Source of the DNA: an uncultured Methylococcus sp.
Lineage (GTDB): Bacteria; Pseudomonadota; Gammaproteobacteria; Methylococcales; Methylococcaceae
Direction: 5' to 3'
Length of the DNA stretch: 64,000 nucleotides
Assembly (NCBI GenBank): GCA_964344615.1
Contig: CAYFOC010000001.1
Coordinates: 802-64,801, forward strand
The notes below the pieces were generated by a model. It saw only the letters and a list, made by a program, of their open reading frames with translations, did no database searches and was not told where the DNA came from. A program made the position numbers and the translations under genes. Shown in pieces: positions 1-55,253 of the stretch. Numbering within the stretch: position 1 is the first letter of the stretch; the number at the start of each line of letters is the position of its first letter.

Positions 1-1025
1 ATAAGGCACGGGTCAGGCTTCAGGCTTTAGTGACTGAAATCATGGAACGCCGCTCCAAGGAGCGCTCCGAAAGTCCTAACGTTTTCCAGACTCTGATTGA
101 TGCCGCCTATGAAGATGGCACGAAACTCACCCCTCATGAAATTACGGGGATGCTGATAGCGACCATTTTTGCTGGACACCACACAAGTTCAGGAACGACG
201 GCGTGGGTCCTGATCGAACTTCTAAGGCATCCTGAATGGATGGCGAAGGTGGTAGAAGAACTGGATCAGTTGTTTGGGAAGGACGGGGACGTCACGTTTG
301 AGTCCTTGCGTCAGATTCCGAATCTAGAAAGTGTTCTTAAGGAAGTTCTTCGTCTACATCCGCCTCTGATTATTCTGATGCGCAAGGTATTGGAGGATTT
401 CACGATCGGGGATACCACCATCCCGGCGGGCAAGTTTGTTTGTGCTGCGCCTGCAATCACTCATCGAATTGCGTCTTTGTTCCCCAATCCGGAACAGTTT
501 GACCCTGATCGATATTCTACAGAGCGCCAGGAGGACAAGAACCTTTATGCCTGGCAAGCGTTTGGTGGTGGACGTCACAAGTGTTCGGGGAACGCGTTCG
601 CACTCTTCCAGATCAAGGCGATCTTCTGCATCCTGCTTCGCCGTTATGAGTTTGAACTGGTCTCAGAAGCTGACACCTATCGCGACGACTATACGAAGAT
701 GGTGGTAGAGCCAGCATCCCCTTGCAAAGTTCGCTACAGGAGAAGGAAGACGACCCAGGAGGCCCTTGGCCAGGAACCCACAAATGGTTCAAAGGAAATA
801 AAGGATGAAGCCTCGCAAGGTGCAAGGATTGTTGTGGACATGGACCTTTGCAAGGGCCATGCAACCTGCATGGGAGAAGCGCCTGAACTCTTCAGAGTGG
901 ATGCAGAAGGGCAGTTGACCGTTTTGAATGATCGTCCGGATTCTGACCTCTTACCCAAGGCCAGAGCTGCTCAGCGTTATTGTCCCACCCAAGCCATCCG
1001 TATCGAAGGTGACGAGGGGGAGTAA
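1..1025 (+). CDS. cyp51: Sterol 14-alpha-demethylase (CYP51-type cytochrome P450) fused in frame to a C-terminal ferredoxin domain; the 5' end lies outside the window
   Basis: The frame is open from nt 3 with no stop upstream of the listed GTG at 30, so the window edge truncates the gene. Motifs: I-helix 'FAGHHTSSGT' (CYP51-type AGxHTS signature), ExxR 'EVLR', heme-thiolate loop 'FGGGRHKCSGNAF'. A polar linker 'RRRKTTQEALGQEPTNGSKEIKDEASQG' is followed by a ferredoxin module. Confidence 0.9.
   Translation, partial: KARVRLQALVTEIMERRSKERSESPNVFQTLIDAAYEDGTKLTPHEITGMLIATIFAGHHTSSGTTAWVLIELLRHPEWMAKVVEELDQLFGKDGDVTFESLRQIPNLESVLKEVLRLHPPLIILMRKVLEDFTIGDTTIPAGKFVCAAPAITHRIASLFPNPEQFDPDRYSTERQEDKNLYAWQAFGGGRHKCSGNAFALFQIKAIFCILLRRYEFELVSEADTYRDDYTKMVVEPASPCKVRYRRRKTTQEALGQEPTNGSKEIKDEASQGARIVVDMDLCKGHATCMGEAPELFRVDAEGQLTVLNDRPDSDLLPKARAAQRYCPTQAIRIEGDEGE
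822..1022 (+). other. Ferredoxin domain of the CYP51 fusion (3Fe-4S-like cysteine spacing)
   Basis: The last 67 aa are 'ARIVVDMDLCKGHATCMGEAPELF...RYCPTQAIRIEG'. The CxxHxxC...CP pattern is the one found in small actinobacterial-type ferredoxins and in the Methylococcus capsulatus CYP51-ferredoxin fusion (recalled, not aligned). Confidence 0.8.
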
Positions 1026-1029
1026 TTGA

Positions 1030-2208
1030 TCAGCTCAGCCGAGAATTGAGGTTGAGGCGGTAACGGCGGCCACGCCAATTGACTTCGCGTCGGATCCAGA
1101 TCTGAAGATAGATCAATGGTGCCGCCAGCCAGATGATCATGGAGCTCCAGGAGTACAGCCAGGGAATAGGCTGACCCGACATTCGATAGTGAAGGCTGTT
1201 GATGGTGAGGGGAACAGACAGCGCCGTAAGCAGCCCCAGCAGCAATATCCCCGGATTTCCGATAATAGCGCCATAACCAAACGCAAGGATGCCTGACCAA
1301 AGCGCAATTCCCGTCAGGGCGTGGGGAAGTTTGGTTGTCCAGAAGGGAAGGCCGGTGATGGAGAAAGCGATCCATCGGATCAAGATCCCGACGAAATCAA
1401 CAAAGGTGCAATCCTGCTGAATGATGGATACGGGCTTCGGAGCCAATAGATTCCGATAACCTTCCTCAACCATACGCCGACCAAGGTACATGTCGTCGAC
1501 CAATTGGCCTTCAGCAGTTTCGAGCCCGCCAATCGCAACGATGGCCTCTCTTCGAAGGACCATCATGTGCCCCATGATGAAGGGTAACGTTCCGCCATTA
1601 CGCTGAGCGGTCGCAAGGGCAGAGGGTTCATATAGTCCATTGACCATGACGGCATAGCCCGTGTCGCCAAGGGTATGCAAAGGGGCATTTGAGACCACTG
1701 TGGGAAAGGATGCACCAGCGCCTTCATCGGAGAGGAGTGTTGCCGCCAGGCGTTCAAGGTCCCCAGGCGACTGGCGGATATCTGAGTCCACGAAAGCAAT
1801 CAAGCTATGGTTTGCCTTTTCCATGGCTTTGATCATGGCATTGAGTTTGCCGGTGCGGTTGCGAGGTGGTTGGCCTGAAAAAAGGATTTCAGCTTCAGCA
1901 GGTAATCCAAGCTCAAGGCGCTCACGGATGACCGCTCTCACAATCGAGACTGCAGGGTCGAGATCATCATCAAAGACAAAAATTGTTTGGACCGGGCCAG
2001 AATAAGCATCTTCAAATCCTGCGATCACGTTTTCCCGAAGTCCGCTATCGACGTCTTTGATAGGGCGAATCACGGTCATCGAGGGGTAATGATCTGGGGT
2101 TGGAGGAAGTATGATCTTGGAGATCGCCAACCGTTGCGACATATAGAAAAACCAGACCCATCCAAGGAGGAGTCCCAGAGTAGCCAGAATGATCAAATTG
2201 ACGCTCAT
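1030..2208 (-). CDS. Integral-membrane family-2 glycosyltransferase, lipid-directed type (ceramide glucosyltransferase / HpnI-like)
   Basis: I moved the start to ATG 2208 (MSVNLIILATLGLLLGWVWFF, N-terminal TM) because the longer ORF (to 2292) overruns the stop of the upstream gene at 2219. Acidic motifs 'FVFDDDLD', 'FVDSDI', 'LVDDMYLG' and then 'LIRW' are followed by several C-terminal TM helices ending 'NWRGRRY'. The gene is convergent with cyp51, with only 4 nt between the stops. Confidence 0.75.
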   Translation of the reverse strand: MSVNLIILATLGLLLGWVWFFYMSQRLAISKIILPPTPDHYPSMTVIRPIKDVDSGLRENVIAGFEDAYSGPVQTIFVFDDDLDPAVSIVRAVIRERLELGLPAEAEILFSGQPPRNRTGKLNAMIKAMEKANHSLIAFVDSDIRQSPGDLERLAATLLSDEGAGASFPTVVSNAPLHTLGDTGYAVMVNGLYEPSALATAQRNGGTLPFIMGHMMVLRREAIVAIGGLETAEGQLVDDMYLGRRMVEEGYRNLLAPKPVSIIQQDCTFVDFVGILIRWIAFSITGLPFWTTKLPHALTGIALWSGILAFGYGAIIGNPGILLLGLLTALSVPLTINSLHYRMSGQPIPWLYSWSSMIIWLAAPLIYLQIWIRREVNWRGRRYRLNLNSRLS

Positions 2209-2218
2209 GGGGAATGTT

Positions 2219-2977
2219 TTATTTGGTGATCGAGGTAAGGAACTGGTTGTAAAAACCTTGGGCCACCCCCTTGCCTCCACGGGCGTTGGCAAGGGATACC
2301 TTGAGTTCCTCTTTGAGTTTCAGGTCAGAAAGCCTTGAGTCCGGTCTTATCGCGGCAAGATCCGCTCTTTCTAGAAATGGGAGTGCTTCCCCGGGTTCGC
2401 CTTCGTCCAGAAGGAAGTCCCCGTAGAAATAGTTGCTGTCCAGCCCATTGGGGAAGAGCCTGACGGCAGTTTCCAGATAGCTTTTCGCAATCTCATTGTC
2501 ACCGAATGAAATGGGCCAGCCGGGCAGCCTGTAATAGAGATTGCCAAGGATCACGTAAGCACTTCCGTCCATGGCCAAAGGATCGATAGCCAGCGCTCTT
2601 TCAACGAAGGATCGCGCTTTTTTGACGTGGCCTAGCGCGCTGAATCCTCCCTCATTGGCAGCCAAGGAGCATTGGATCAGTGCGGCAACGATCAAAGGTT
2701 CGGCCCGCTGAGGGAATTGTTGAATCAAGCTTTCCGCCTGGAGGCTCAATGGCTTGAGCAGTGCCAGCTGTTGATCTTCCGGCGTGGCGTAGAACGTGGT
2801 TTCCCACTGGTTCTTGATGATTTGAATGCTGGTAGGGTTCGGAACGTCTTCTGCCTGCGCGGGATGAATGAGGCTGACAAGGACTCCGAGGATGATGGCT
2901 GCGCGATTCAACGGACGCAGGACTTCTGCACGCTGTGTAGTCGAACTTGGGTAGGTAGGGCGGCCGATCTTGTGCAT
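2219..2977 (-). CDS. Secreted all-helical (TPR/TatT-like) protein, a paralogue of the lipoprotein at 6604-7407
   Basis: The signal peptide is 'AAIILGVLVSLIHPAQA/ED'. The C-terminal block 'ILGNLYYRLPGWPISFGDNEIAKSYLETAVRLFPNGLDSNYFYGDFLL' aligns by eye with 'LLGMLYLKAPPWPTGIGDGDKALSYLKEAVDHYGQHPLNHLFYAEALF' of the 267-aa protein. It lies 10 nt upstream of the GT2 gene, so the two are probably co-transcribed. Confidence 0.65.
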   Translation of the reverse strand: MHKIGRPTYPSSTTQRAEVLRPLNRAAIILGVLVSLIHPAQAEDVPNPTSIQIIKNQWETTFYATPEDQQLALLKPLSLQAESLIQQFPQRAEPLIVAALIQCSLAANEGGFSALGHVKKARSFVERALAIDPLAMDGSAYVILGNLYYRLPGWPISFGDNEIAKSYLETAVRLFPNGLDSNYFYGDFLLDEGEPGEALPFLERADLAAIRPDSRLSDLKLKEELKVSLANARGGKGVAQGFYNQFLTSITK

Positions 2978-3037
2978 GATGTTGAATCCCTGCGGGGGAT
3001 AGCGGGTTACTTGACCGACGATGCCTCGTCGAGCTCA

Positions 3038-3067
3038 ATAAAAAAACCCATGCACAGCATGGGTTTT
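3038..3067 (-). terminator. Rho-independent terminator ending the five-gene sterol operon
   Basis: The minus strand reads aaacccatgc-tgt-gcatgggttt followed by ttttttatt. This is a 10-bp perfect stem plus a U-tract, about 20 nt after the epoxidase stop (3089). Confidence 0.8.
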
Positions 3068-3088
3068 ATCGAGGCTGAAACCTCTGGG

Positions 3089-4582
3089 TTATTTCGCGAG
3101 CGCGCTCTGTTCCCGAATCCAGTGCTGCAGAGCAGTCTGAGGAATGCTCAGGCTCTTCTGGGCCAGTTTCAAAATGGACCTGAACCATCCGTATCCGGCA
3201 CCACGGCGCAGTTCGCTGGGCAGGAGTCGGAACGCTTGGAATACCACGACCACGAACTGCATGCCCATGGAAACGATGCTGCTATCCATGGTTGAGAGCA
3301 ATGCGAGGGAATGGGAGCGTCCCTTTGGATTGCTCTTCCAGTATTCGAAGATACAGCGGTTGAGCAATACGGACTCAGGAGTATGAGACAGGAAAGCCTC
3401 GCGCAATTCCTCAGAAAGAGTTCTGCGGGTGAGCTGTACGCGACCTGCCGCAATGGCGTAATCACGCAACGCTTTCTCGACATTCAGGTCGTGCTTGATA
3501 AGGGCATCACGGAGGCTCAACGCGTCCTTGACGGCGGTTGTAATGCCGGAGGCGGTTAGCGGATGACAGCAACCACGTGCATCCCCCAAAAGGGCCACGT
3601 TCATCTTCACGCTGCTTTTCGGGACAATCCGATAATTTGCGGCTGCCAACGGCTTGTCTCGCGCCATGGCAGCTTCGATGTCTTCCCGGAATGCCTTAGG
3701 GAAAGATTTGAGGTGTTCACGCACGGACTCTTTCGAGTCATCGCCTCTCAGCACTTCAAGCATGACGCGTGCACGTCCCTTTGAAACGCTGTAGGCATAG
3801 GAAATGCCGAGCGGATTTAGGAAAATATTGCCATGCTCGCGGGTCGGCAGGTGTCGATCATCGACTTCCACGCCCAACATGCCAGAGTAGCGGTGAGTTT
3901 CGTGGGAAATCCCAGTCAACTTGCGAACCTGAGACATACCTCCATCTGCGCCAATAATTAGCTTGGCGTTTACGCGGACATCTCCGTTTTCCGTGGACAC
4001 CACGGCAAAAGCAGTCTTTCCATCGCCCTCAGCAGTAATGGCCGTGACTCTTGGCCCCATCCACACGTCAACGCCATCGACTTTCTTTACCTTGTCGAGG
4101 AGATGATCCTTCAAGGCTTGGTGTTCAATGGCCATGCCGCCATGATCGAGGCCTTCGACTTCGCCATACGGCAAGACAACGTTGTCTTCGTACTCTTTTC
4201 CCTCATTGAAGGGGAAGATAGAGAATCCACGGATGATGGAGCCCAGTTCAGGCTTATCATCCAGCAAACCCAAGTGCTTTAGGCCATCAATCCCAGGCGG
4301 GTGAATGAGTTCCCCGGCGAGGCGGCGTCCGTGTGAGGACTTTGGTTCGATGATCAGAATCTTGAGGCCGAGCGGCGCGAGTGCGGCCGCAGCAGCGGAA
4401 CCGGCAACACCACCACCAGCGATAAGGACGTCAACGTCCACGGGAATATTCGCGTTATTTTCCATCATCAATCTGGTTGGACCCATCAAAGATTGAAGTA
4501 GCGAAGGTTGAAGGGCTTCGGATGAGGGGAATCCCCTCGTTTCGAAGCTATTGTGCCACAAAAAAGCAACAATCGTTGCCAA
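3089..4582 (-). CDS. Squalene monooxygenase (squalene epoxidase), FAD-dependent
   Basis: The dinucleotide fold is 'VDVLIAGGGVAGSAAAAALAPLGLKILIIEP'. The motif 'LLGDARGCCHPLTASGITTAV' matches the eukaryotic squalene-epoxidase motif GDAxNMRHPLTGGGMTV. The gene lies 9 nt downstream of the cyclase. The true start may be an internal Met (4486, 4468 or 4465), which would give a shorter N-terminus. Confidence 0.85.
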   Translation of the reverse strand: MATIVAFLWHNSFETRGFPSSEALQPSLLQSLMGPTRLMMENNANIPVDVDVLIAGGGVAGSAAAAALAPLGLKILIIEPKSSHGRRLAGELIHPPGIDGLKHLGLLDDKPELGSIIRGFSIFPFNEGKEYEDNVVLPYGEVEGLDHGGMAIEHQALKDHLLDKVKKVDGVDVWMGPRVTAITAEGDGKTAFAVVSTENGDVRVNAKLIIGADGGMSQVRKLTGISHETHRYSGMLGVEVDDRHLPTREHGNIFLNPLGISYAYSVSKGRARVMLEVLRGDDSKESVREHLKSFPKAFREDIEAAMARDKPLAAANYRIVPKSSVKMNVALLGDARGCCHPLTASGITTAVKDALSLRDALIKHDLNVEKALRDYAIAAGRVQLTRRTLSEELREAFLSHTPESVLLNRCIFEYWKSNPKGRSHSLALLSTMDSSIVSMGMQFVVVVFQAFRLLPSELRRGAGYGWFRSILKLAQKSLSIPQTALQHWIREQSALAK

Positions 4583-4591
4583 GCAACAACA

Positions 4592-6583
4592 TTAAACCCT
4601 TTGAATGTTGTGATTATACCGCGTCAAAGCCCAGACGGGGAAATATGTATGGTACAGACGGTAGTCCAGCATGGCCGCACCAAAAAACACACCATTAACG
4701 GCTTGCATGGGCCAGCTGCCATCCGTTTGCTGTTGCTTCAGAAGCCACACCATTCCATTTGCGATGGCTGGATGATCTGAAGGCAGAATATCCATCAGCG
4801 CCAGTAACGCCCAACTCGTCATGACCACCTGTGTTTCAGGATGCTCGATGTAGCGCTCTTCCAGGCAGCTCGTGTAATGCTCGCTCCATCCACCATCGTC
4901 CCTCTGGTGAGCGAGAAGAAATGCCGCTGCCTTCTGCATCAAGGGGTCATCAGCGCTCGTTCCTGAGGATCGGAGAGCTCTTACGGCGTGGAAAGTTGCA
5001 TAGGTGTAATTGATGCCCCAGAAACCCTGCCAGGAGCCATCTGCCTGCTGTTGGCTCTTCAACAAGCGAATGGCGCGCTGGGATGCCTCTTCAAGCCGGA
5101 CAGGCTCAAAATCCGGATCCAAATGCCGAAAGTGGCAGATGGCATCCAATGCTGAAGCCGTACACTCAATATAGGAGAGTTCCGTCATGCATTGACCGAA
5201 CATTTCAGAGGGATTGATCAGTTCCAGCAGCTTGCCGGCACGGCGCTGCTCGTAGGTGCCAAAACCCCCATCCTTGTTTTGTCTGGAAAGAATGAAGAGG
5301 ATGCCCTCACGCAGTCGATTGGGGTCAAACTTCGGGAGGTTGTGGTACGAGGGGCCCGTCTGGATGGTAATGATTCCGCTGATCGCCTCGGCCGTACAGT
5401 CGCTTACCGGCCATCGATGTTCGCCATCGGAAAAGCACCATCCTCCGGTCGCGGGGTCGCGCCAGTAGTTTTCGTATCCAGGTGCCTCATCACAGAGCTG
5501 TGCTCTGGACAAAAATGCAATTGCTTTTCCCATGGCGTCAACGGTGGATTCATCCGGTGACCTGATATTCGATACTGCCTGCAGGACAAATCCCGTATCC
5601 CAAGTATTTGAACGCGCGCCAACATATCGGAGTCCCTCATTTTCGTCCTCCCATCGCCAAGCCTCAACGCCCTGGATGCTCGGTTCAAGTTCGGGATGCT
5701 TTGAGTCGGCGACAAAAATTGCCAGCGTATTGAGAAGCCCATTGACCGGTGAAATGCCCTGATAGCATGTGGTCTTCTGCTCAAAAAGGATGCGATCAAG
5801 ACACACAGAGAGCGCCTTCTCACGAGTCTTCTTGCTGTGCCAGCGTTCAAAAATAGCCAGCCCATCGTAGATCAGCCGCAGCACCGGAGTGATCGGGACA
5901 TATACATCAGACTTGGCCAGTGCATGTCGCAGCTTCGAGAAGGGGATCTGATTGTAAGGCGTCGTATACAGTTCAGAACGGAGTGCTGAAACTAAGGGCT
6001 CAGGGAGATTGGCTACGAAACGCTTTCCACAAATGTAGGCCAGTCCAAGATAAATCAGACGGGTGTGGCAATAGAAGCGCCTTGGATGGAATGGGAGCCA
6101 TTCGGGCAGCAGAAACAGTTCAGGAGGAATGGCATTCAGACCCTTGTACTCATAGAGGCCAAGTATCGCGAGCCAAAACTTTCCCCAGGTCGGGATGCCC
6201 TCTACTCCAGTAGGTTGCTGGTGTAACCAGTTTCGTGCCCTCGATGCGACCGGGTGATCCGGCGCAACATCGATGAGTCGGAGTGCAACATACGCAAGGG
6301 TCGTGAAAAAAACATAGCCAGGCGATTCCGGGTGCATGCCCCAAGATCCGTCTTTGGCCTGTGTGACCTCGAAATGTTTGATGATCTTCTCGCGATCCGC
6401 CTGCGAGTAGGGTTGGCCGACGATCGTTCGCACAATGACAGCCTGTGCGAGGATCATGGTGCACCAGACCATTTCCCCCTCGAAATCTCCTCCTGTCTTT
6501 TGTTGCGAGAGAAGGTAACGAAGGGCTGCGTCCTGCGCTTGGGTTAACCGATCGTCTGTCAAAGGGGATATGGTTTCGGGCAT
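4592..6583 (-). CDS. osc: Oxidosqualene cyclase (lanosterol/cycloartenol synthase family)
   Basis: The protein is a 663-aa triterpene cyclase with QW repeats (e.g. 'QQADGSWQGFWG', 'QRDDGGWSEHY'). The catalytic motif is 'HRWPVSDCTAEAISG', i.e. VSDCTAE as in eukaryotic OSCs. No DxDDTA motif (squalene-hopene cyclase) is present. The gene is directly followed by the squalene epoxidase. Confidence 0.9.
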   Translation of the reverse strand: MPETISPLTDDRLTQAQDAALRYLLSQQKTGGDFEGEMVWCTMILAQAVIVRTIVGQPYSQADREKIIKHFEVTQAKDGSWGMHPESPGYVFFTTLAYVALRLIDVAPDHPVASRARNWLHQQPTGVEGIPTWGKFWLAILGLYEYKGLNAIPPELFLLPEWLPFHPRRFYCHTRLIYLGLAYICGKRFVANLPEPLVSALRSELYTTPYNQIPFSKLRHALAKSDVYVPITPVLRLIYDGLAIFERWHSKKTREKALSVCLDRILFEQKTTCYQGISPVNGLLNTLAIFVADSKHPELEPSIQGVEAWRWEDENEGLRYVGARSNTWDTGFVLQAVSNIRSPDESTVDAMGKAIAFLSRAQLCDEAPGYENYWRDPATGGWCFSDGEHRWPVSDCTAEAISGIITIQTGPSYHNLPKFDPNRLREGILFILSRQNKDGGFGTYEQRRAGKLLELINPSEMFGQCMTELSYIECTASALDAICHFRHLDPDFEPVRLEEASQRAIRLLKSQQQADGSWQGFWGINYTYATFHAVRALRSSGTSADDPLMQKAAAFLLAHQRDDGGWSEHYTSCLEERYIEHPETQVVMTSWALLALMDILPSDHPAIANGMVWLLKQQQTDGSWPMQAVNGVFFGAAMLDYRLYHTYFPVWALTRYNHNIQRV

Positions 6584-6603
6584 GTTGTTGGTGTTCGGGA
6601 GAG

Positions 6604-7407
6604 TTAGTGCGCAGCTTTGGTGATTTCGAGGATGACTTCGGCGAATTCTTTGTCCCAGATCACCCGGTTATAGCCCCAGGGGCCCTTGGCCAGAATGGTT
6701 TGGCCTCTTTGTATTTCTGCCTGAGCCTCTGTGGTTTTCTCATCCACCTCGAATAAGGCTTCCGCATAAAACAAGTGATTAAGTGGATGCTGACCGTAGT
6801 GGTCAACGGCTTCCTTAAGGTAAGACAGAGCCTTGTCCCCGTCACCGATGCCGGTCGGCCAGGGAGGGGCTTTCAGGTACAGCATTCCGAGCAGACGCAA
6901 CGGCCCCCCTTGATCAACGGCTTTCGAGAGTCGGGCGGCTGTCGTCAATTCATCTTCCAGGCGATGTAGGTTCTCAGCCGCCTGCACAGGGTGGTTGTTG
7001 ATGGCGAGGCCCAAGTTGGCAGCCAGATAATAGTGAACAGCCGCATCCTCCTTGCCGCCATTTGACAGGGCTCGTTCGGCAAGTTTCACGCCTTCGGCGG
7101 CGAGAGCTTCCCGGTCAGGTCCTGTAGGAAGTCTTTCAGCCAGATGCAGGGCAATTTCCGAAGATCGTGAAGATCGGATGAAGGCAGGCGTCGTGGATTT
7201 CCGCGCCAAATTCATCGCACACTGGAGATCCTCCGTTGATGTAGATGGACCAAGCGATGAAGATTCGGACAGTAGCTTTTCTTCTGTGATGTCTGCGCAA
7301 TTCCCATGCCCTACAAGGGCAACGATGCGATTGGGAAGGGCACTACAGGCGGAGAGAAGGGTCAGGGTCAGAAGCAAGCTGACCCGGTAACTCATGTGCA
7401 TCATCAA
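6604..7407 (-). CDS. bstC: Helical-repeat (TatT/TPR-like) lipoprotein, a BstC-like putative sterol-binding envelope protein
   Basis: The lipoprotein signal has the lipobox 'LTLLSAC'. The helical C-terminal block is shared with the 2219-2977 protein. Its start overlaps the stop of the upstream binding-protein gene (TGATG/TTGA at 7402-7407). The BstC assignment comes from family and context only. Confidence 0.6.
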   Translation of the reverse strand: MMMHMSYRVSLLLTLTLLSACSALPNRIVALVGHGNCADITEEKLLSESSSLGPSTSTEDLQCAMNLARKSTTPAFIRSSRSSEIALHLAERLPTGPDREALAAEGVKLAERALSNGGKEDAAVHYYLAANLGLAINNHPVQAAENLHRLEDELTTAARLSKAVDQGGPLRLLGMLYLKAPPWPTGIGDGDKALSYLKEAVDHYGQHPLNHLFYAEALFEVDEKTTEAQAEIQRGQTILAKGPWGYNRVIWDKEFAEVILEITKAAH

Positions 7408-8246
7408 TGACTCTTGTTCCAGAGGCTAATCATGGGATTAATTGCGGCAGGCGAAGCGGGGACAAAGGCGTCTATGGCAAACAGACCGCACAATTTCATC
7501 CCATCAGGGTCCTTGCAGAGGTTTGCAAGGGACTTTGCAAACCGTGCGCGCTCGTCGCTGGTGCTGGACTCCTGATTGGCCACGAGCCCCATCAATGGCA
7601 AGGGCGCCGAGGTGAAGACCGAGTCCAGTTCATGAGTCAAAGGAAGCGACCCGAGTGCAGCGAATTGCTGTCCATTGAGCAGTACCGCATCCAGTTCACC
7701 CTTGTCCAGAGCGCGCAAAGCACGGATAGCTTGTTTGCTGGCTTTAAGCTGAAAGTCTTGTTCTGGATTGATTTTCCCGGCGAACACAATTTTGCGGATA
7801 AAGCCTGCTTCCTCGAAAACCGTCCCGCCGATCGTTTTGCCCTTGAGGTCATCGAGTGAAGCAAAGCGTCCCTTTATCGCCACAAGATGAAACTGCTCTG
7901 TCGTTTCTCCGCGCATCTTGGGTTGGACGACGGGTTCAAGGTGAAGGCTGTCACGCTGCTCCAAAAAGATGCCCAGTGAGGTAATCGCGAATGCGGGATT
8001 ATTTTCGTTCAGAAGTTTCTTGCAACCCTCGACATCCGAAGAGAAGCTGCTGCTGAAGGTATTGGCAGGCCATCCTCCAACCCGTTCCACCACACTGAGC
8101 ATTGCAGACATCGCCTTATTGGCATCGTCTTCGCTCACGGGGCCACCCGGGTAGCAGACGACAACCGTTGAGGAAGCCGCAATCGTTGCGCCTGAAAAGA
8201 CGATTCCGATGATCAGGAGGATATTTCGAACAGATTGAAAGCTCAT
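7404..8246 (-). CDS. bstB: Periplasmic substrate-binding protein (PhnD-like type-2 PBP fold), BstB-like
   Basis: The signal/anchor is 'ILLIIGIVFSGATIAASS'. A PBP-like 'LDDLKGKTIGGT' segment is present. The gene lies 6 nt after the RND gene and overlaps the start of the next gene. No ABC permease or ATPase is nearby, so it is not a classical ABC importer component. Confidence 0.6.
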   Translation of the reverse strand: MSFQSVRNILLIIGIVFSGATIAASSTVVVCYPGGPVSEDDANKAMSAMLSVVERVGGWPANTFSSSFSSDVEGCKKLLNENNPAFAITSLGIFLEQRDSLHLEPVVQPKMRGETTEQFHLVAIKGRFASLDDLKGKTIGGTVFEEAGFIRKIVFAGKINPEQDFQLKASKQAIRALRALDKGELDAVLLNGQQFAALGSLPLTHELDSVFTSAPLPLMGLVANQESSTSDERARFAKSLANLCKDPDGMKLCGLFAIDAFVPASPAAINPMISLWNKSH

Positions 8247-8252
8247 TGCGAT

Positions 8253-10937
8253 TTATTTTTTCCGACGGGTAACAAGGATCAGTCCGATAGCGGGTGCGAT
8301 GAACAGCGTGGATGCGAGACAACTCAGGAGACCTATGGTGATATCAATACCCAGTCCCGAAACGCCTCGGTAGCTTGCCAATGTGATGGCGCCAAGTCCC
8401 GCGAGTTCCGTTCCGGCTGCGAGCAGAATGACGCGGCCTGCATCCAGTGCAATGCCGACCGGATCCCGACCCTCAAGGGCCATCCAACGATGACTGAGCC
8501 AGACGCCATAATCGACCGCCAACGCAATCACGAGTGGCAAAGCGATGATATTGGCGTAATTGTAGTGCAGCCCAGCGACTTTCATCACGCCAAGCATCCA
8601 TCCTCCGCCAATTACAAGCGGCAGAGCTGCCATCAATATGCCTTTAGGGGACCGAATGACGAAGCATAGCCAAGCCAGACAGACGAGGATGGCGGCTTTG
8701 GTTCCATGGCTGAAACTACTGACTACGGCCTTGGAGAAGACCTGATGCGTTGAGGGGAAGCCGGTTGCATCGGGAGAAACGGAGTACACCTCCTTCATCA
8801 GATCATCGAGGTTGTTCGGGTCATAGACACTTTTTGCAGGGTAGGCGTAGGCAGCCAGGGTGCCATCGGGCGCAACAAACCGCTCTCTTATTCCATCGGG
8901 CAGATCCGAAGGTGACAGCGGGGTGGTTTTTTGCCATCTTGAAACGGTCTCGAGGCCATGAGTGGCTGAAGCGATAAGTGCTCTGAGGAAAGCCTCTGAG
9001 CGTGCGCGACCTGAATCTGGCTCTTCTTCCAGGCGAATGAGGATGTCATTCATGTCCTTGTGGAGCGCCTCTATGCGGCTGACCAGCTCCTTGTTGCCCG
9101 AACTAAACGCCTGTTCTTCGTAGTCCTCAAGTTTTTCAATGGCCAAACGAAGGCTCTGACGAATCTTGAAGAACGTGGGTTCATCAAGGCCCTGATTGCT
9201 CAGTGTCAGGAGATGCTGACGTAGGACAGGTCTTGCGGCGAGCGATCCCAGACGATGCGCCTGCTCGATGCGTTCAGATCCATCGGCTGGGAAGAAACTG
9301 CTGATGGACTGCACTTTGGCTATCGTGGGGAGCTGCTGAGCGCCTTCTGTGATTCTCCGAATATCTTCTAACGTCTTGGCCGTGAAGATGATGATTTCGG
9401 ACTGATAATCTGTCTCTGTGACCAGCTTTCGTTGATATTCGGCGGCTTTGGAGTCTTTGGGGAGCAAAGACAAGACGTCGTAATCAAATTCCATGTCCAG
9501 ACCGGCATGGATGCCGAAAATGGCTCCGCCGGACGCGATCAGCACCAGGGCAAGCGCGACACTCCTGGGGAGTGTCGGTGACGTGGCGTCAACCTTTTTT
9601 ACCTTCTTCGCCTTCATTTTAGGAGGGAAGAGGGCATAGACGGCGGGCTGAACGACCCATGTGCTGATGAGGATCAGAAGAACACCACCTGCAGCGATGA
9701 TGCCGAGTTCTGCAAATCCCGGGAATTCGACCGTTGCCAGCGTTCCAAAGATGAAGAGGGATGCGCCACCGGCGGTTATGACGGCTGGAAAGGAATCGCG
9801 TATCCCAGTGCCGATCGCGTCCAAAAGCGGTAATCCTGAACGCCTGGCTTCGGCAATTTGTGAGGTCGTGAAAATGCCATAGTCCGCGCCGAGGCCAAAA
9901 AGGATGGCGAGGAAGCTCGATGTGATGATGGTGAGATGGCCCACGGTCAAATAGGCGAAGCCAAGACTCCAAAGTGCACCCAGACCCATCGGGATGAAAA
10001 TCGCAAGCGCCCACGGAACACTTCTGACGACGAGGAAAATGAGTGCGCCGATCAATCCCGCAGCGGTCCAGATGACCATCTTGATATCCCGTTCGATATC
10101 GATGTACTCCTCGTAGGCGATCGCAGGCAATCCGGTCAGAACGACATTCGGGGCCTTCAGGCCTTTTGCTTCAAAGTCATGGGCAAGTTCTCCGGCTGCC
10201 TTCTGAACTTTTTCATTCAGAGGCGCCAGCGTCTCAAAGTCTTCCCCCTTGGCCTTGGCATGAACGAAAACCAAAAGCATTCGGCCATCGTGCGAGGTGA
10301 AATACCCTTTGCCCAGTTGCTCAGCGCCAATGGCTTTGAGGATTTCTTCGAAATTGATATCTGCGCTTGAGGGCGGGTTGTTCAGCCAGCGTTGCCATTC
10401 CTGAAGAAACGCATCCGCCGCTTTCATACCGGTCAATGCCGCTTGAATATCCGGGGTATCAGAATCGGCCCCCGCATTGCTTGATGAGGCCAGCGCCATC
10501 AAGGATTCAAGGGACGCTCCTTTGATCGTGGATCCGGCCTGAAGCGCTTTTTCGAGCTGATCAAGCTGATCTTCTGGCAGCAAGAGGTAAAGATGGTCGT
10601 GCAAGAAGCTCGTGTCGATGCGATCTGTGGCTTGCGCAATTTCAGGGAGACTTCTTAGCTTGACTGCCAGTTCATGGGCAAAGGATTCCAGATCTTCGCG
10701 CGGAGCATTCTCAAGGATCACCACCAGGTCCGAGGAAGCACCGAAGGTGTCGAGATACTGGTTCAGTCGGTGCGCAACCTCCGTGTTCTGTGGCAACAAG
10801 GCCTGCCTTGATGTGTAAACCGGCAGGTGTGTCGCAGCAAGGATGGCAGCGAGTGAAATCAATAAGGCTCCGGAGAGAACCCACCAGGGGTGACGGGCGG
10901 AACCAAGGCTCAGGCGATAAACGAGAGTTTTCAGCAT
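8253..10937 (-). CDS. bstA: RND-superfamily inner-membrane transporter of the HpnN/MmpL type, BstA-like putative sterol exporter
   Basis: The 894-aa protein has two 6-TM bundles ('...ILFGLGADYGIF...' and '...VIALAVDYGVWLSH...'), each preceded by a large periplasmic loop. This is the typical HpnN/MMPL architecture. It is the first gene of the operon that ends with the cyclase and epoxidase. Confidence 0.7.
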   Translation of the reverse strand: MLKTLVYRLSLGSARHPWWVLSGALLISLAAILAATHLPVYTSRQALLPQNTEVAHRLNQYLDTFGASSDLVVILENAPREDLESFAHELAVKLRSLPEIAQATDRIDTSFLHDHLYLLLPEDQLDQLEKALQAGSTIKGASLESLMALASSSNAGADSDTPDIQAALTGMKAADAFLQEWQRWLNNPPSSADINFEEILKAIGAEQLGKGYFTSHDGRMLLVFVHAKAKGEDFETLAPLNEKVQKAAGELAHDFEAKGLKAPNVVLTGLPAIAYEEYIDIERDIKMVIWTAAGLIGALIFLVVRSVPWALAIFIPMGLGALWSLGFAYLTVGHLTIITSSFLAILFGLGADYGIFTTSQIAEARRSGLPLLDAIGTGIRDSFPAVITAGGASLFIFGTLATVEFPGFAELGIIAAGGVLLILISTWVVQPAVYALFPPKMKAKKVKKVDATSPTLPRSVALALVLIASGGAIFGIHAGLDMEFDYDVLSLLPKDSKAAEYQRKLVTETDYQSEIIIFTAKTLEDIRRITEGAQQLPTIAKVQSISSFFPADGSERIEQAHRLGSLAARPVLRQHLLTLSNQGLDEPTFFKIRQSLRLAIEKLEDYEEQAFSSGNKELVSRIEALHKDMNDILIRLEEEPDSGRARSEAFLRALIASATHGLETVSRWQKTTPLSPSDLPDGIRERFVAPDGTLAAYAYPAKSVYDPNNLDDLMKEVYSVSPDATGFPSTHQVFSKAVVSSFSHGTKAAILVCLAWLCFVIRSPKGILMAALPLVIGGGWMLGVMKVAGLHYNYANIIALPLVIALAVDYGVWLSHRWMALEGRDPVGIALDAGRVILLAAGTELAGLGAITLASYRGVSGLGIDITIGLLSCLASTLFIAPAIGLILVTRRKK

Positions 10938-11065
10938 GAAAAGTGATGCACAGTCGCAAAAATGGAATGGAAACTATTCTGCAAGAGCAGGTGTCTCACC
11001 CGGAGTGAGTGTCACGGGGGGCCCTGTGGCTCGCACTCATATTAACGGCGATAGAGAGAATACTC

Positions 11066-11470
11066 ATGATTAACCTTTACGGGCCAGCCATTGTTAAGGG
11101 TATTGGGCTTTTTCTGACCCTCTACTTCATTCATGTGGTCCTTTTGCCCCAGTTGGTAGGTGAATCGGCAGCAACCGGGGATTATCAGGGCTTATTGTAT
11201 GGGATCAATCAGCTCCTTGGATTGGCTACCTGCATGATTCCTGGTTTTATGGCTGCAAGAATGGCCGGACATCACGGCTTTCTTCATGGATTGCTGGTCG
11301 GAGGGATCAGCACGGTCCTGACCGCGTTGATGGCGATGCTGTGGTCGATCATTACCGGTGCAAAGTTTTTTGGACTCGAGATGCTTCCCTTCTGGCTCGT
11401 GATGAATGGGTTCCTATCGGCATTCGCAGGTCTTCTTGCGACGAACATGACCGAATCTGAAGAGGAATAA
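11066..11470 (+). CDS. Small integral membrane protein (about 4 TM helices), function unknown
   Basis: This is a hydrophobic ORF, 'MINLYGPAIVKGIGLFLTLYFIHVVLLP...'. ATG 11066 is preferred over GTG 11009. It is divergent from the sterol operon. Confidence 0.5.
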   Translation: MINLYGPAIVKGIGLFLTLYFIHVVLLPQLVGESAATGDYQGLLYGINQLLGLATCMIPGFMAARMAGHHGFLHGLLVGGISTVLTALMAMLWSIITGAKFFGLEMLPFWLVMNGFLSAFAGLLATNMTESEEE

Positions 11471-11570
11471 TTCGATTACGCGACTCGCGAACTTCCATAG
11501 CTCGGAACGGTGGTGGAATTCCCACACGTACGTGGGGGATAATGATCCCAATTCCCACCCGAGGCGCGAA

Positions 11571-12788
11571 ATGAATCAGGAATACGATGTGCTCATAGTT
11601 GGCGGAGGCATGGTCGGTGCGACCTTGGCTTGTGCTCTAGGTGGCAGCCACCTTCGCGTGGGGCTTCTCGAGGAAAATCCCCCCCCGGCATTTGAAGCCG
11701 ATCAGCCTCATGATCTTCGGGTTTCTGCTGTGAGTGTGGCTTCTGCAAATATTCTCAAGACGGTGGGCGCTTGGTCTGGGATCGCCCAGCGCCGACTTTG
11801 TCCCTATCGTCGAATGCGCGTTTGGGAAGATGGAGGCGATGTCGAGTTTTGCAGTGATGAGATCAACGAACCCGTCCTCGGCCACATCGTTGAAAACCGG
11901 ATTATCCAACTTTCAGTTCTTGATCGGGCCAAAGAATTCAGCAACGTAGACCTCATTACTGGGGTCAAGACGCAGTCCGTGCGTTACAACGCTCAGGGGT
12001 CCACGGTCACGCTGGAAGATGGCCGAACCCTGAATGGCCGACTGCTGGTGGCAGCAGATGGCGGATTCTCTAAGGTCCGTCAGTCTGCAGGCATGGGGGT
12101 CAGTGGCTGGGATTATGAGCAGCATGCCTTGGTGCTGACCGTTGATACTGCCTCCGGGCAGCAGGACATCACTTGGCAACGGTTCACGCCGCAGGGCCCT
12201 CAGGCACTCCTGCCTCTTGATGGACCCCACGCCTCGCTGGTTTGGTACAACACGCCTGAAGAAGTGGCGAGGCTCAAGACGCTGTCCGACGACCAATTGC
12301 TCGCTGCGCTTGAAGCTACGTTCCCAGCTTGCCTTGGCGAAATTACCAAGATTACGGCGCGAGGGAGTTTTCCGCTGCGTCGACAGCATGCGCTCCGTTA
12401 TATCAAGACAGGAGTCGCCTTGATTGGGGATGCAGCCCACATGATTCATCCCCTGGCCGGGCAGGGCGTCAATATCGGGCTACTTGATGCGGCAGCACTT
12501 GCGGAAGTCCTCATCGGTGCCCACAAGGCCGGTGAAGATATTGGTTCTGAGTCGGTACTCGGTCGTTATGAGCGGATGCGACGCAAGAACAACCTTCTCA
12601 TGATGACGGTCATGGACGCTTTCTACAGGGCCTTCGGTAATTCCAGTGGCCCGGTGCGCGTTCTTAGGAATCTGGGGCTGGGACTTGCCGAGCGCCTCAA
12701 GCCTGCAAAAAAAATCGCGATGAGTTATGCCATGGGCATTAGCGGAACGCTCCCGCGTCTTGCTCAAGGTGAAGCCCTTCTGGGTTAG
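11571..12788 (+). CDS. UbiH/UbiF/VisC/COQ6-family FAD-dependent ubiquinone hydroxylase
   Basis: Motifs are 'YDVLIVGGGMVGATLA' (GxGxxG), 'LLVAADGGFSKVR' and 'ALIGDAAHMIHPLAGQGVNIG'. I moved the start to ATG 11571. Confidence 0.85.
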   Translation: MNQEYDVLIVGGGMVGATLACALGGSHLRVGLLEENPPPAFEADQPHDLRVSAVSVASANILKTVGAWSGIAQRRLCPYRRMRVWEDGGDVEFCSDEINEPVLGHIVENRIIQLSVLDRAKEFSNVDLITGVKTQSVRYNAQGSTVTLEDGRTLNGRLLVAADGGFSKVRQSAGMGVSGWDYEQHALVLTVDTASGQQDITWQRFTPQGPQALLPLDGPHASLVWYNTPEEVARLKTLSDDQLLAALEATFPACLGEITKITARGSFPLRRQHALRYIKTGVALIGDAAHMIHPLAGQGVNIGLLDAAALAEVLIGAHKAGEDIGSESVLGRYERMRRKNNLLMMTVMDAFYRAFGNSSGPVRVLRNLGLGLAERLKPAKKIAMSYAMGISGTLPRLAQGEALLG

Positions 12789-51567: not shown

Positions 51568-51615
51568 GGATCTTTTGCTACGTGCTTTTGCGCTAATGGG
51601 ATCGTCATATCAGAA

Positions 51616-51637
51616 AGCCCCTACGAGGGTAGGGGCT
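51616..51637. repeat. Perfect 9-bp-arm inverted repeat in the divergent DHCR24/sdmB-like control region
   Basis: The repeat agcccctac-gagg-gtaggggct lies 49 nt upstream of the DHCR24-like ATG (51567, minus) and 54 nt upstream of ATG 51691 (plus). Confidence 0.6.
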
Positions 51638-51690
51638 TCCTCTGTTGTGCCATGTTACCATTAGAGAAATTGCGCGAATATTCAGGAACC

Positions 51691-54718: not shown

Positions 54719-55240
54719 ATGACTGAGATTCAGTATACCCTTCGACTTCAGGACCTCATTTTTTTCAATGACCATCAGTTCTGCAAGAAGGAAGAAACAA
54801 AAAAATCGCTGCGCCGTCATCAGACAACCGTTCCTGCGACATTGTCACTGATCGTCCTATTCGTTTGGTTTTATTACCAGGACACCCTGACCGCCATGTG
54901 GTTGGGTGTAGCCGCTGTCAGTTGGGCCTTTGTTGCACCCTGGATGATTCGTTGGAATGCGAAGAAGCGGGCCATGGCGCTTTATACAGCCGATGTGCTT
55001 GAACGTGTTCTGGGCACCTATACCCTGAAAGTCGAAGAGAAAGATCTTGTCGAGATCAGCAATGCCGGTGAATCGCGTATTGCCTGGAAGGACGTGCTTC
55101 GAATCGAGCCTGCAAAAAACTACGCGTTCATCTTCGTATCTTTGGATTCGGCCATCATTATTCCCCGCAAAACCGTCACTCAGGGCGATATTCTGACGTT
55201 CTTCAAGGACGTTGAAGCCCACATCGAAAAAGCTTCCTGA
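54719..55240 (+). CDS. YcxB-like membrane protein (two TM helices plus a C-terminal beta domain)
   Basis: Two central TM helices are present ('ATLSLIVLFVWFYY', 'WLGVAAVSWAFVAPWMI'). The 'YAFIFVSLDSAIIIPRK' segment is typical of YcxB-like proteins. Confidence 0.55.
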   Translation: MTEIQYTLRLQDLIFFNDHQFCKKEETKKSLRRHQTTVPATLSLIVLFVWFYYQDTLTAMWLGVAAVSWAFVAPWMIRWNAKKRAMALYTADVLERVLGTYTLKVEEKDLVEISNAGESRIAWKDVLRIEPAKNYAFIFVSLDSAIIIPRKTVTQGDILTFFKDVEAHIEKAS

Positions 55241-55253
55241 GTCCTGGCTAGGA

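Follow-up and report, generated by a model that had tools for sequence, protein, structure and literature searches.

Orthologues of the BstABC sterol-binding proteins are encoded directly upstream of oxidosqualene cyclase in an uncultured Methylococcaceae methanotroph

Three minus-strand genes that lie directly upstream of the oxidosqualene cyclase gene in the window, the whole 64-kb stretch of DNA analysed, are orthologues of bstA, bstB and bstC in an uncultured methanotroph of the Methylococcaceae, and their products very likely form a sterol conveyor of the kind proposed below. The first-pass annotation had recognised a BstA/BstB/BstC-type system from its composition, and full-length homology to the Methylococcus capsulatus proteins, found for all three, bears this out decisively. 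Orthology, conservation of the pocket and energy-coupling residues, the compartment signals and the gene linkage are established for this locus. With the position of bst genes beside sterol-making genes already described, the identification is correct but ordinary, and its significance beyond annotation is small: BstABC is added in one more uncultured freshwater lineage of the family.

The bst genes and their transcript

In the list of open reading frames, bstA occupies positions 8253–10937, bstB 7404–8246 and bstC 6604–7407. The stop codon of bstA (TAA) is followed after 6 nt by the ATG of bstB, and 20 nt separate bstC from the cyclase gene osc (4592–6583, minus strand). Between them, bstB and bstC overlap by 4 nt if bstC starts at the TTG at 7407 or by 1 nt (TGATG) if it starts at the ATG at 7404, the latter being the start in the gene call on an identical public contig; the reading frames and gaps are thus as first described. 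We infer that bstABC and osc are co-transcribed, and the squalene monooxygenase gene smo (3089–4582, minus strand) is probably part of the same transcript. A strict operon fusion with both biosynthetic enzymes had been proposed. For smo, the second committed enzyme, lying outside the interval 6604–10937 that the first-pass annotation covered, the fusion is not strict, since the osc–smo gap is 9 nt from the TTG that opens the smo frame at 4582 or 105 nt from its likely ATG start at 4486.

Directly 3' of smo, the minus strand is predicted to fold into a terminator-like hairpin (3043–3067), its 11-bp stem leading into a U run. Its folding energy is −22.9 kcal/mol (z = −4.0), and none of 200 shuffled sequences was equally stable; the corresponding positions of loci L003 and L014 gave no such hairpin. 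In this genome, the bstABC–osc–smo transcript probably ends at the hairpin. At the other end, the divergent intergenic region upstream of bstA (10938–11065) holds the presumed promoter and contains a gtTAGAC motif conserved in an alignment across seven genomes. The region gave no significant match to the sigma-70 consensus, and promoter-like and terminator-like matches showed no enrichment over shuffled sequence.

Conservation of BstA, BstB and BstC

BstA (894 aa) is, as first annotated, an MmpL/HpnN-type RND transporter of the inner membrane, matching PF03176 (MMPL; E = 1e-29) and aligning at full length with M. capsulatus BstA (51% identity across 895 aa). The best NCBIfam model is BstA itself (NF045600), with 1,272.9 bits over model positions 7–902 of 903, a score below the strict equivalog cutoff of 1,400 bits but 3.6 times that of the next family (HpnN, 348 bits). 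Hydropathy predicts 12 transmembrane (TM) helices in a 1+5/1+5 pattern with two periplasmic domains (residues ~41–284 and ~483–742), the TM bundles being 65–68% and the periplasmic domains 44–48% identical to those of M. capsulatus. Asp–Tyr dyads are found in TM4 (D352–Y353) and TM10 (D809–Y810), as in M. capsulatus BstA, and we found no mention of them in the accessible text of two Bst papers. In MmpL3, the dyads of TM4 and TM10 form the proton relay (PMC7458404); judged from sequence, their presence here supports transport driven by protons in the manner of MmpL3 and not of HpnN. The PDB relatives of BstA at E ≤ 1e-3 are HpnN and MmpL4/MmpL5 only, and none of the 11 matching sequences is an NPC1, Patched or Dispatched chain. 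The kinship with NPC1/Patched sterol transporters that had been suggested therefore holds at the general level of the RND superfamily, a link already mentioned by Zhai et al. (eLife 2024, PMC10942540), and not as a clade-specific one.

BstB (280 aa, with a Sec-type signal peptide) is a periplasmic substrate-binding protein that matches the crystal structure of M. capsulatus BstB (7T1M) with E = 9.5e-93 and is 53–56% identical to that protein over its full length. Its best model is NCBIfam BstB (NF045601), with 386.7 bits over the equivalog cutoff of 350, and PF12974 (Phosphonate-bd) also scores above threshold (45 vs. 27 bits). The description as an orphan PhnD-like binding protein is sound: the 64-kb window holds no transporter-type ABC gene that could supply a cognate permease or ATPase, the sole reading frame with a Walker-A motif and an ABC signature encodes a soluble ABC-F protein (55212–57149), and the neighbours of the bst genes as far as ~16 kb all carry unrelated domains. 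We rejected a PhnD-type binding protein of a phosphonate ABC system as an identity for BstB; the PF12974 match is genuine, but the ABC partners are missing from the window.

In the predicted sterol pocket of BstB, defined by docking and listed by Zhai et al. (PMC10942540), 19 of 22 residues are identical to M. capsulatus, a proportion above the 53% of the whole protein. Of the polar pocket residues, E118 and N192 are kept, and Tyr120, a docked hydrogen-bond partner in M. capsulatus, is replaced by Phe, so the specificity could differ. Point mutants of M. capsulatus BstB shifted the affinity less than twofold according to the accessible text of Zhai et al. (PMC10942540), and single pocket substitutions therefore predict little.

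BstC is a helical lipoprotein with the TatT fold, 266 or 267 aa long depending on its start, that matches the crystal structure of M. capsulatus BstC (7T1S; E = 8e-72) and shares 48–49% identity with it over the full length. NCBIfam BstC (NF045602) gives 306.7 bits, under its equivalog cutoff of 350, and no other family scores. The TatT/TPR-like lipoprotein that had been described is thus recovered, with domain matches that stay sub-threshold (PF16811, 21 bits against a gathering score of 26.5) and the LLSAC lipobox in place; a Ser at position +2 is consistent with sorting to the outer membrane. Of the 42 cavity residues, 32 are identical to M. capsulatus BstC, compared with 48% overall, the substitutions including R132 to Asn, M135 to Pro and L139 to Ala. 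E91 is the counterpart of M. capsulatus Glu86, which hydrogen-bonds the sterol hydroxyl and was found critical by mutagenesis (Zhai et al., PMC10942540, accessible text); E91 and the lipobox Cys are invariant in nine homologues. The 12 TM helices of BstA, the signal peptide of BstB and the lipobox of BstC agree with the earlier assignment of one component to each envelope compartment. The BstC glutamate, the BstB cavity and the two BstA dyads, fixed at ~50% identity, can usefully direct mutagenesis of the M. capsulatus proteins.

Sterol genes and gene order around bstABC

The cyclase (663 aa; Pfam SQHop_cyclase_N and SQHop_cyclase_C) scores 926 bits with the 2,3-oxidosqualene cyclase model TIGR03463 (cutoff 851), compared with 275 bits for the squalene–hopene cyclase alternative. 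Smo matches PF08491 (SE) and FAD_binding_3, and its relatives align only from residues 27–34 of the reading frame onward. The remainder of the sterol pathway is encoded in the same window. The 3' part of a CYP51–ferredoxin fusion gene (sterol 14-alpha-demethylase; p450 and Fer4_15; 30–1025, plus strand) converges on the cluster and is truncated where the window begins. Its best PDB match is 6MCW (Cytochrome P450 51, 551-aa chain; E = 2e-145, residues 211–532), which we take to be the M. capsulatus CYP51–ferredoxin fusion. Genes resembling sdmB (sterol C-4 demethylation reductase; 51559–52701, plus strand) and sdmA (Rieske 4-methylsterol monooxygenase with Rieske and VanA_C domains; 52768–53925, plus strand) are found further away, that for SdmB 41 kb from the bst genes. 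Their products score 305 bits with NF052578 and 385 bits with NF052579, respectively, below the cutoff of 600 in both cases, and each is 42% identical to its M. capsulatus counterpart.

Downstream of smo lie two further minus-strand genes. One encodes a secreted TPR protein of 252 aa (2219–2977) and the other, starting 10 nt after it, a membrane glycosyltransferase of the GT21 family (1030–2208; 392 aa from M29 of the reading frame 1030–2292; PF13506, E = 1e-20) to which an identical public protein exists and which reaches only 99 bits with HpnI (TIGR03472, cutoff 310). The TPR protein is a distant paralogue of BstC: BLASTP aligns the two with E = 4e-8 and hhalign with 95% probability (E = 3.5e-8, 83 columns), and the top four PDB matches of its AF2 model (pLDDT 85) found with Foldseek are 8G52, 8G53 and 7T1S. 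It is without a lipobox, and the low-identity alignment (26%) contains no equivalent of BstC E86. The pair is a conserved and unexplained side lead. It may extend the sterol module: the soluble TPR protein would pass a triterpenoid, either sterol or hopanoid, to the glycosyltransferase or accept one from it, and the outcome would be a glycosylated sterol lipid, a product not yet described in sterol-synthesising bacteria; we consider this doubtful. In a MAG of the Myxococcales, a 44%-identical GT21 gene is immediately preceded by one for a START-domain protein, which fits a partnership between a lipid-binding protein and GT21.

Each of the 12 related loci examined keeps the order bstABC, the most diverged triad being that of a deltaproteobacterial MAG (35–42% identity), and the full row bstABC–osc–smo–TPR–GT21 is found in six of them, each in another genome; the arrangement is therefore not due to chance. 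On the other hand, the linkage of bstABC to osc and smo, which had been put forward as new, is already reported for some methanotrophs in the accessible text of Zhai et al. (eLife 2024, PMC10942540) and recurs in the same order in those six genomes. Nor are transport genes first as a rule: a Methylovulum genome has the order CYP51–osc–smo–sdmB–sdmA–bstABC, and the partners of the bst block vary among the loci from osc–smo to sdmAB, all of them or none. The bst loci of Methylolobus and Methylotetracoccus have no sterol gene within 10 kb, slightly qualifying the statement in the same paper that bst genes are always located with genes of sterol synthesis.

The proposed sterol route and its relation to known systems

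In the mechanism that we favour, Smo, Osc, CYP51 and SdmAB would make the sterol at the cytoplasmic membrane, and BstA, powered by the proton gradient through the Asp–Tyr dyads of TM4 and TM10, would draw 4-methylsterol from that membrane up into its periplasmic domains. Soluble, bilobed BstB would then take the sterol into the hydrophobic cavity of its lobe A and carry it across the periplasm to BstC, anchored in the outer membrane, whose helical tunnel would receive it, Glu91 forming a hydrogen bond with the 3-OH; BstC would then deliver it to that membrane. Sterol binding by the three proteins is predicted from M. capsulatus, in which the periplasmic domain of BstA, BstB and BstC bind with micromolar affinity and select 4-monomethylsterol (Zhai et al., PMC10942540, accessible text), the binding constants being 2.4–4.4 µM for 4-monomethylsterol and 80 to >200 µM for dimethylsterol. 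The direction of transport and the hand-over between components are presumed; inner-to-outer-membrane export is likewise presumed in M. capsulatus, where binding alone has been demonstrated and attempts to delete bst genes failed.

The same conveyor could carry an earlier or different sterol, such as a 4,4-dimethyl or lanosterol-like one, instead of a 4-monomethylsterol, because bstABC is here coupled to osc–smo rather than to the C-4 demethylase genes sdmAB. The Tyr120 replacement in BstB, the three cavity substitutions in BstC and the modest identity of the BstA periplasmic domains agree with this, as do the distance and divergence of sdmB and sdmA. Still, most pocket residues and the key acidic residues (BstB E118 and the counterpart of BstC E86) are conserved, the BstB point mutants moved affinity little, and 4-monomethylsterols are probably made, since sdmAB are present in the genome; we regard such a shift as unlikely. 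Another reading retains the proteins and has the flow reversed or running both ways, sterol being retrieved from the outer membrane or outside to the inner membrane, e.g., for further demethylation by SdmAB or homeostasis, with BstC as receptor and BstB as shuttle. The families of BstB (PhnD-type binding proteins) and BstC (TatT) are normally tied to import, and fatty acids are bound by TatT relatives in bacteria that are presumed lipid importers. However, the sole membrane component is an RND protein of the MmpL/HpnN type, whose characterised members export lipids outward, and there is no ABC permease in the window and no TRAP permease among the annotated neighbours to ~16 kb. Furthermore, M. 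capsulatus sterols accumulate in the outer membrane and the bst genes appear to share a transcript with those for the first committed enzymes of sterol synthesis, making reversed or two-way flow very improbable. That the pump is an HpnN-like hopanoid exporter, its adjacency to the cyclase reflecting shared triterpenoid metabolism only, is scarcely credible: no solved structure is closer than that of HpnN (5KHN, E = 1e-27), and methanotrophs also make hopanoids, which are present in the M. capsulatus lipid extract, but the HpnN models stay far under their cutoffs (TIGR03480, 348.5 vs. 751.85 bits; NF052374, 215.2 vs. 1,100) where the BstA model gives 1,273 bits, HpnN lacks the second Asp–Tyr dyad, the M. 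capsulatus Bst proteins pulled 4-methylsterols and not hopanoids from total lipid, and the neighbouring gene encodes an oxidosqualene and not a squalene–hopene cyclase.

Compared with known systems, the BstABC-type conveyor shares RND-superfamily membership of its pump and a sterol substrate with NPC1/Patched. BstA belongs to a different RND family with no pairwise similarity detectable in the PDB at E ≤ 1e-3, and the NPC1/Patched partner proteins have folds unrelated to the Bst partners; an NPC1/Patched-type identity was rejected for BstA. PhnD of ABC importers has the bilobed type-II binding-protein fold (PF12974) of BstB, but BstB has no PhnC/PhnE partners, a hydrophobic cavity replaces the anion site by homology to 7T1M, and BstB forms a separate cluster from PhnD in the published sequence similarity network (Zhai et al., PMC10942540, accessible text). 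TatT (Treponema pallidum Tp0956, 3U64; also 8G52/8G53) resembles BstC in its helical TPR-like ring and central hydrophobic tunnel, a ring fold also predicted by the model of the 252-aa protein. In contrast to BstC, TatT proteins have TRAP transporter partners and bind long-chain fatty acids; no TRAP (DctP/Q/M) genes were found among the annotated bst neighbours out to ~16 kb, and with the PF16811 score also under threshold BstC was rejected as the T-component of such a TPAT system.

MmpL3 and the mycobacterial MmpL exporters share PF03176 and the paired dyads in TM4/TM10 with BstA but are very distant (MmpL4/MmpL5, E = 1e-6 to 4e-4), and they act on other substrates in the mycobacterial (mycomembrane) envelope. 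HpnN of Burkholderia multivorans (5KHN/5KHS) likewise has 12 TM helices and two periplasmic domains, its TM4 Asp aligns with that of BstA, and its presumed role is alike, namely to carry a polycyclic triterpenoid outward from the inner membrane to the outer one. The similarity is only ~E = 1e-27 (99 bits), HpnN has Asp–Phe in TM4 and Ala–Phe in TM10 where BstA has Asp–Tyr at both, and BstA was rejected as an HpnN hopanoid transporter on the scores given above; no BstB- or BstC-like partners of HpnN were reported in the literature searched. The closest system is BstABC of M. capsulatus (Zhai et al., eLife 2024; 7T1M, 7T1S; NF045600–NF045602), with the same families in the same order at 49–56% identity. 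BstA and BstC of the window fall slightly under the equivalog cutoffs, BstB has Phe for Tyr120, and bstABC is followed by osc–smo, an adjacency already published, where Methylococcus has sdmA–sdmB. The pocket residues, the BstC glutamate, the lipobox and the Asp–Tyr dyads are common to both systems, and both are embedded among sterol biosynthesis genes.

Identity and gene order of the triad

Seven minus-strand genes, from bstA through a GT21 glycosyltransferase gene, form an unbroken row in the window sequence. All were read as ORFs: bstA (8253–10937, 894 aa), bstB (7404–8246, 280 aa), bstC (6604–7407, 267 aa), the oxidosqualene cyclase gene osc (4592–6583, 663 aa), the squalene monooxygenase gene smo (3089–4582, up to 497 aa), a TPR protein gene (2219–2977, 252 aa) and, starting 10 nt beyond the latter, the GT21 gene (1030–2292, 420 aa as ORF; 1030–2208, 392 aa from Met29). 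The stop codon TAA of bstA is followed after 6 bases by the ATG of bstB, and the end of bstB (...CAT TGA) overlaps the start of bstC by 4 nt if that start is TTG or by 1 nt (TGATG) if it is ATG, as on an identical public contig. The TAA of bstC and the ATG of the cyclase gene are 20 nt apart. The junctions from bstA through osc are translationally coupled, and the order and spacings given by the first-pass annotation for the three genes directly upstream of the cyclase agree with our reading. The regional GC content is uniform (0.53–0.54) and thus gives no sign of recent foreign origin; both a public NCBI contig and a Logan contig (ERR2345104) encode proteins identical to those of the window.

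In Pfam, the 894-aa protein matched MMPL (PF03176, E = 1e-29), the 280-aa protein matched Phosphonate-bd (PF12974, E = 1e-11), and the 267-aa protein gave TatT/TPR matches only, all sub-threshold. Among solved structures, the 280-aa protein hit 7T1M (E = 9.5e-93), the crystal structure of M. capsulatus BstB deposited under "MCA1014", and the 267-aa protein hit 7T1S, that of BstC (E = 8.2e-72); the nearest solved relative of the 894-aa protein was HpnN (5KHN, E = 1e-27), followed by MmpL4/MmpL5. The best NCBIfam model for each of the three was its own Bst equivalog. BstB exceeded the cutoff (386.7 bits vs. 350), and both BstA (1272.9 bits vs. 1400, the runner-up HpnN scoring 348) and BstC (306.7 bits vs. 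350, no second family reported) were below theirs. As references we used the proteins of the binding experiments listed in Table 2 of Zhai et al. (eLife 2024, PMC10942540), to which the identities were 51% over 895 aa for BstA, 56% over 260 aa for BstB and 49% over 252 aa for BstC. The first-pass annotation had named the M. capsulatus BstABC proteins as the counterparts; with 49–56% identity, an absence of detectable homology is decisively excluded and the naming was correct. The triad consists of orthologues of BstA, BstB and BstC.

Facing the cluster in convergent orientation, and truncated by the start of the window, is the C-terminal part of a CYP51–ferredoxin fusion (sterol 14-alpha-demethylase; 30–1025, plus strand), whose top PDB match is 6MCW (Cytochrome P450 51 chain, 551 aa, E = 2e-145), the entry for the M. 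capsulatus CYP51–ferredoxin fusion. The divergent genes upstream of bstA are non-sterol genes, encoding a small hypothetical protein, a UbiF-like hydroxylase, an acyl-CoA ligase and BepA. The C-4 demethylation genes have homologues at a distance of 41 kb from bstABC, with sdmB preceding sdmA (sdmB-like, 51559–52701, plus strand, 305 bits; sdmA-like, 52768–53925, plus strand, 385 bits), each 42% identical to its M. capsulatus counterpart and short of the NCBIfam cutoff of 600 bits. A FAD_binding_4 VAO-type flavoprotein of 536 aa (49957–51567, minus strand), encoded divergently from these two, could conceivably be a sterol side-chain (C-24) reductase; its matches are generic to the VAO family, none being specific for that enzyme. 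No ABC permease or transporter-type ATPase was found in the window, and the sole match to Walker-A plus signature belongs to an ABC-F protein (55212–57149).

Ligand cavities and the proposed sterol route

We transferred the residues named by Zhai et al. (PMC10942540) onto the window proteins. The docked pocket of BstB retains 19 of its 22 residues, Glu118 and Asn192 among them, at 53% identity over the whole protein; the replacements are Tyr120 to Phe, Ile112 to Met and Val222 to Leu. In BstC, the identical cavity and loop residues number 32 of 42, against 48% overall, and Glu86 of the M. capsulatus protein is conserved as Glu91. All nine aligned BstC homologues, one of which is deltaproteobacterial and 31% identical, share this glutamate as well as the lipobox cysteine and two more cysteines. 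According to the same source, mutation of Glu86 lowers the affinity for 4-monomethylsterol approximately 4.5-fold (Gly) or 100-fold (Trp), and 4,4-dimethylsterol, cholesterol and lanosterol are then no longer bound (PMC10942540). The ligand-cavity residues are conserved, and a shifted sterol specificity of the Bst system is not favoured by the data.

The 280-aa BstB has a Sec-type signal peptide, and in the 267-aa BstC the LLSA-C motif is followed by Ser. Under the +2 rule of E. coli, a Ser after the lipobox Cys predicts sorting to the outer membrane, and this is the location predicted for BstC. The set of BstA, BstB and BstC carries inner-membrane, periplasmic and lipoprotein signals. In the route that we propose, BstA would extract sterol from the inner membrane by means of the proton gradient, BstB would ferry it through the periplasm and BstC would take it over at the outer membrane. 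For M. capsulatus, it is reported that the BstA periplasmic domain, BstB and BstC pull 4-methylsterols from total lipid, with Kd values of 4.4, 2.4 and 2.5 uM, respectively, for monomethylsterol and >200, >200 and 80 uM for dimethylsterol (PMC10942540). As bst deletions in that species were unsuccessful (PMC10942540), both the transport and the direction in which it runs still have the status of a model; the data do not favour retrograde sterol transport by the same proteins, nor a hopanoid as the substrate of the pump.

Transcription signals and the genes after smo

The cyclase belongs with the oxidosqualene cyclases (TIGR03463, 926 bits, cutoff 851; squalene-hopene cyclase model, 275 bits), and the gene after it encodes a squalene epoxidase (PF08491). 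Translation of smo could start at a TTG 9 nt past the cyclase stop or at an ATG at 4486, the latter leaving a 105-nt spacer; relatives of the protein align from residue 27–34 onward only. Within this possible spacer (4487–4591, minus strand) lies a GC-rich hairpin, GAGGGG-ATT-CCCCTC, which lacks a U tract. The matching spacer of L003, a related MAG locus, has two sigma-70-like matches (10/12 and 9/12), and smo may thus have a promoter of its own.

Directly 3' of smo (3067–3043, minus strand), an 11-bp stem followed by a U run forms a hairpin with a folding energy of -22.9 kcal/mol (z = -4.0); an equivalent was sought at the same place in L003 and in the metagenome contig L014, and none was found. 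Consensus scans of positions 1–12000 gave 4 promoter-like sites vs. 6.0 expected in shuffles and 18 terminator-like sites vs. 12.2, neither an enrichment, and therefore provide no independent proof of an operon. Among the scan matches, the hairpin after smo alone stands out, and bstABC–osc–smo may form one five-gene transcript ending there. Rfam gave no match anywhere in the window, indicating no known riboswitch or leader in it. No consensus sigma-70 promoter was detected in the region upstream of bstA. In an alignment of this divergent intergenic region (10938–11065), the motif gtTAGAC is kept in all seven genomes with this gene order; it may represent the -35 element of a promoter or a site for a regulator.

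The 252-aa TPR protein and BstC are distantly related. The BLASTP alignment between them spans 52 residues and takes in the PxWPxxxGD loop (E = 4e-8), and the profile–profile comparison with the BstC family (hhalign) gave a probability of 95% over 83 columns (E = 3.5e-8). The four best PDB matches found by Foldseek for its AlphaFold (AF2) model (pLDDT 85) are TatT (8G52, 8G53) and BstC (7T1S), with E values of 3.5e-4 to 1.2e-3 and TM-scores of 0.5–0.75, outranking generic TPR proteins. The TPR protein has a Sec signal peptide without a lipobox, and no counterpart of BstC Glu86 is apparent in the low-identity (26%) alignment. The gene is kept after smo in L002–L006 and L014. Members of its family are widespread in Methylococcales (371 matches), and the homologue of Candidatus Methylocalor adjoins glnE; given this breadth, this context and the lack of a Glu86 match, we downgraded the protein as a candidate for a sterol-specific fourth Bst component.

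The GT21 enzyme (1030–2208, minus strand) has homologues among Methylococcaceae as well as in MAGs of myxobacteria and deltaproteobacteria, with related loci at 8324–10227 of L016 and 9001–10206 of L015; JGI names these homologues "ceramide glucosyltransferase". The resemblance of the enzyme to the HpnI model is weak (99 bits, cutoff 310), on which ground membership in HpnI was rejected; the homologue in Methylococcus sp. ANG has unrelated neighbours and no sterol genes. One Myxococcales MAG has a START lipid-transfer-domain protein immediately ahead of a 44%-identical homologue, a hint that GT21 may repeatedly be paired with a lipid-binding protein. As a speculative reading, the enzyme might glycosylate a sterol or some other membrane lipid.

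Related loci and known systems

A contig scan with BstB as the sole query required exact peptide words and reached 6 loci only; M. capsulatus and other genera were reached through protein homology search and the encoding contigs, and gene order was compared across a sample of 12 related loci. Five MAGs with 72–76% protein identity (L002–L006) have exactly the order of the window: BepA, acyl-CoA ligase, UbiF-like, small ORF, then bstA-bstB-bstC-osc-smo-TPR-GT21 and the convergent CYP51–ferredoxin gene. The same order is found in L014 (60% BstB identity). In two Methylococcus loci (L008, L009), FA_hydroxylase is followed by bstA-bstB-bstC-sdmA-sdmB and osc is absent within 10 kb; in a Methylovulum genome (L013) biosynthesis comes first, one strand carrying CYP51–ferredoxin, a hypothetical gene and osc-smo-sdmB-sdmA-bstA-bstB-bstC. 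A Deltaproteobacteria MAG (L007, 7191–13426) has a distant bstABC with 35–42% identity and the BstC glutamate kept, after which comes a gene for a polytopic membrane protein of 609 aa in place of sterol enzymes. The differing neighbour blocks indicate that the triad is a fixed module recombined with various sterol gene blocks. In Methylolobus aquaticus and Methylotetracoccus oryzae (L010, L011; 7314–11642) bstABC stands alone, osc, smo, sdmA/B and CYP51 being absent within 10 kb on either side, which qualifies the claim of constant co-localisation with sterol synthesis genes made by Zhai et al. (PMC10942540).

In that paper, bstABC was picked out because it shares a putative operon of five genes with sdmAB, and the link of the RND protein to NPC1 has already been remarked on (PMC10942540). 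The system and its gene arrangement are thus known: the fusion of transport with biosynthesis genes, which the first-pass annotation had put forward as new, is already published and the window's arrangement is common to at least six other genomes. The locus is the known system, correctly identified, and the Methylococcaceae lineage that carries it is new and uncultured.

The hydropathy of BstA follows the RND pattern, with TM helices arranged 1+5 and 1+5 around two periplasmic domains; compared with M. capsulatus BstA, the TM bundles are 65–68% and the periplasmic domains 44–48% identical. Asp–Tyr pairs are found in TM4 (D352–Y353, GLGADYGIF) and TM10 (D809–Y810, ALAVDYGVW), both motifs being identical in M. 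capsulatus BstA; no mention of the dyads was found in the sections covered of the two Bst papers. In MmpL3, the proton relay is established to consist of paired Asp–Tyr dyads in TM4 and TM10 (PMC7458404). Whereas HpnN, the structurally closest protein, has Asp–Phe and Ala–Phe aligned at the two places, BstA resembles MmpL3 in having the dyad in both helices, and an MmpL3-like proton relay is conserved in it.
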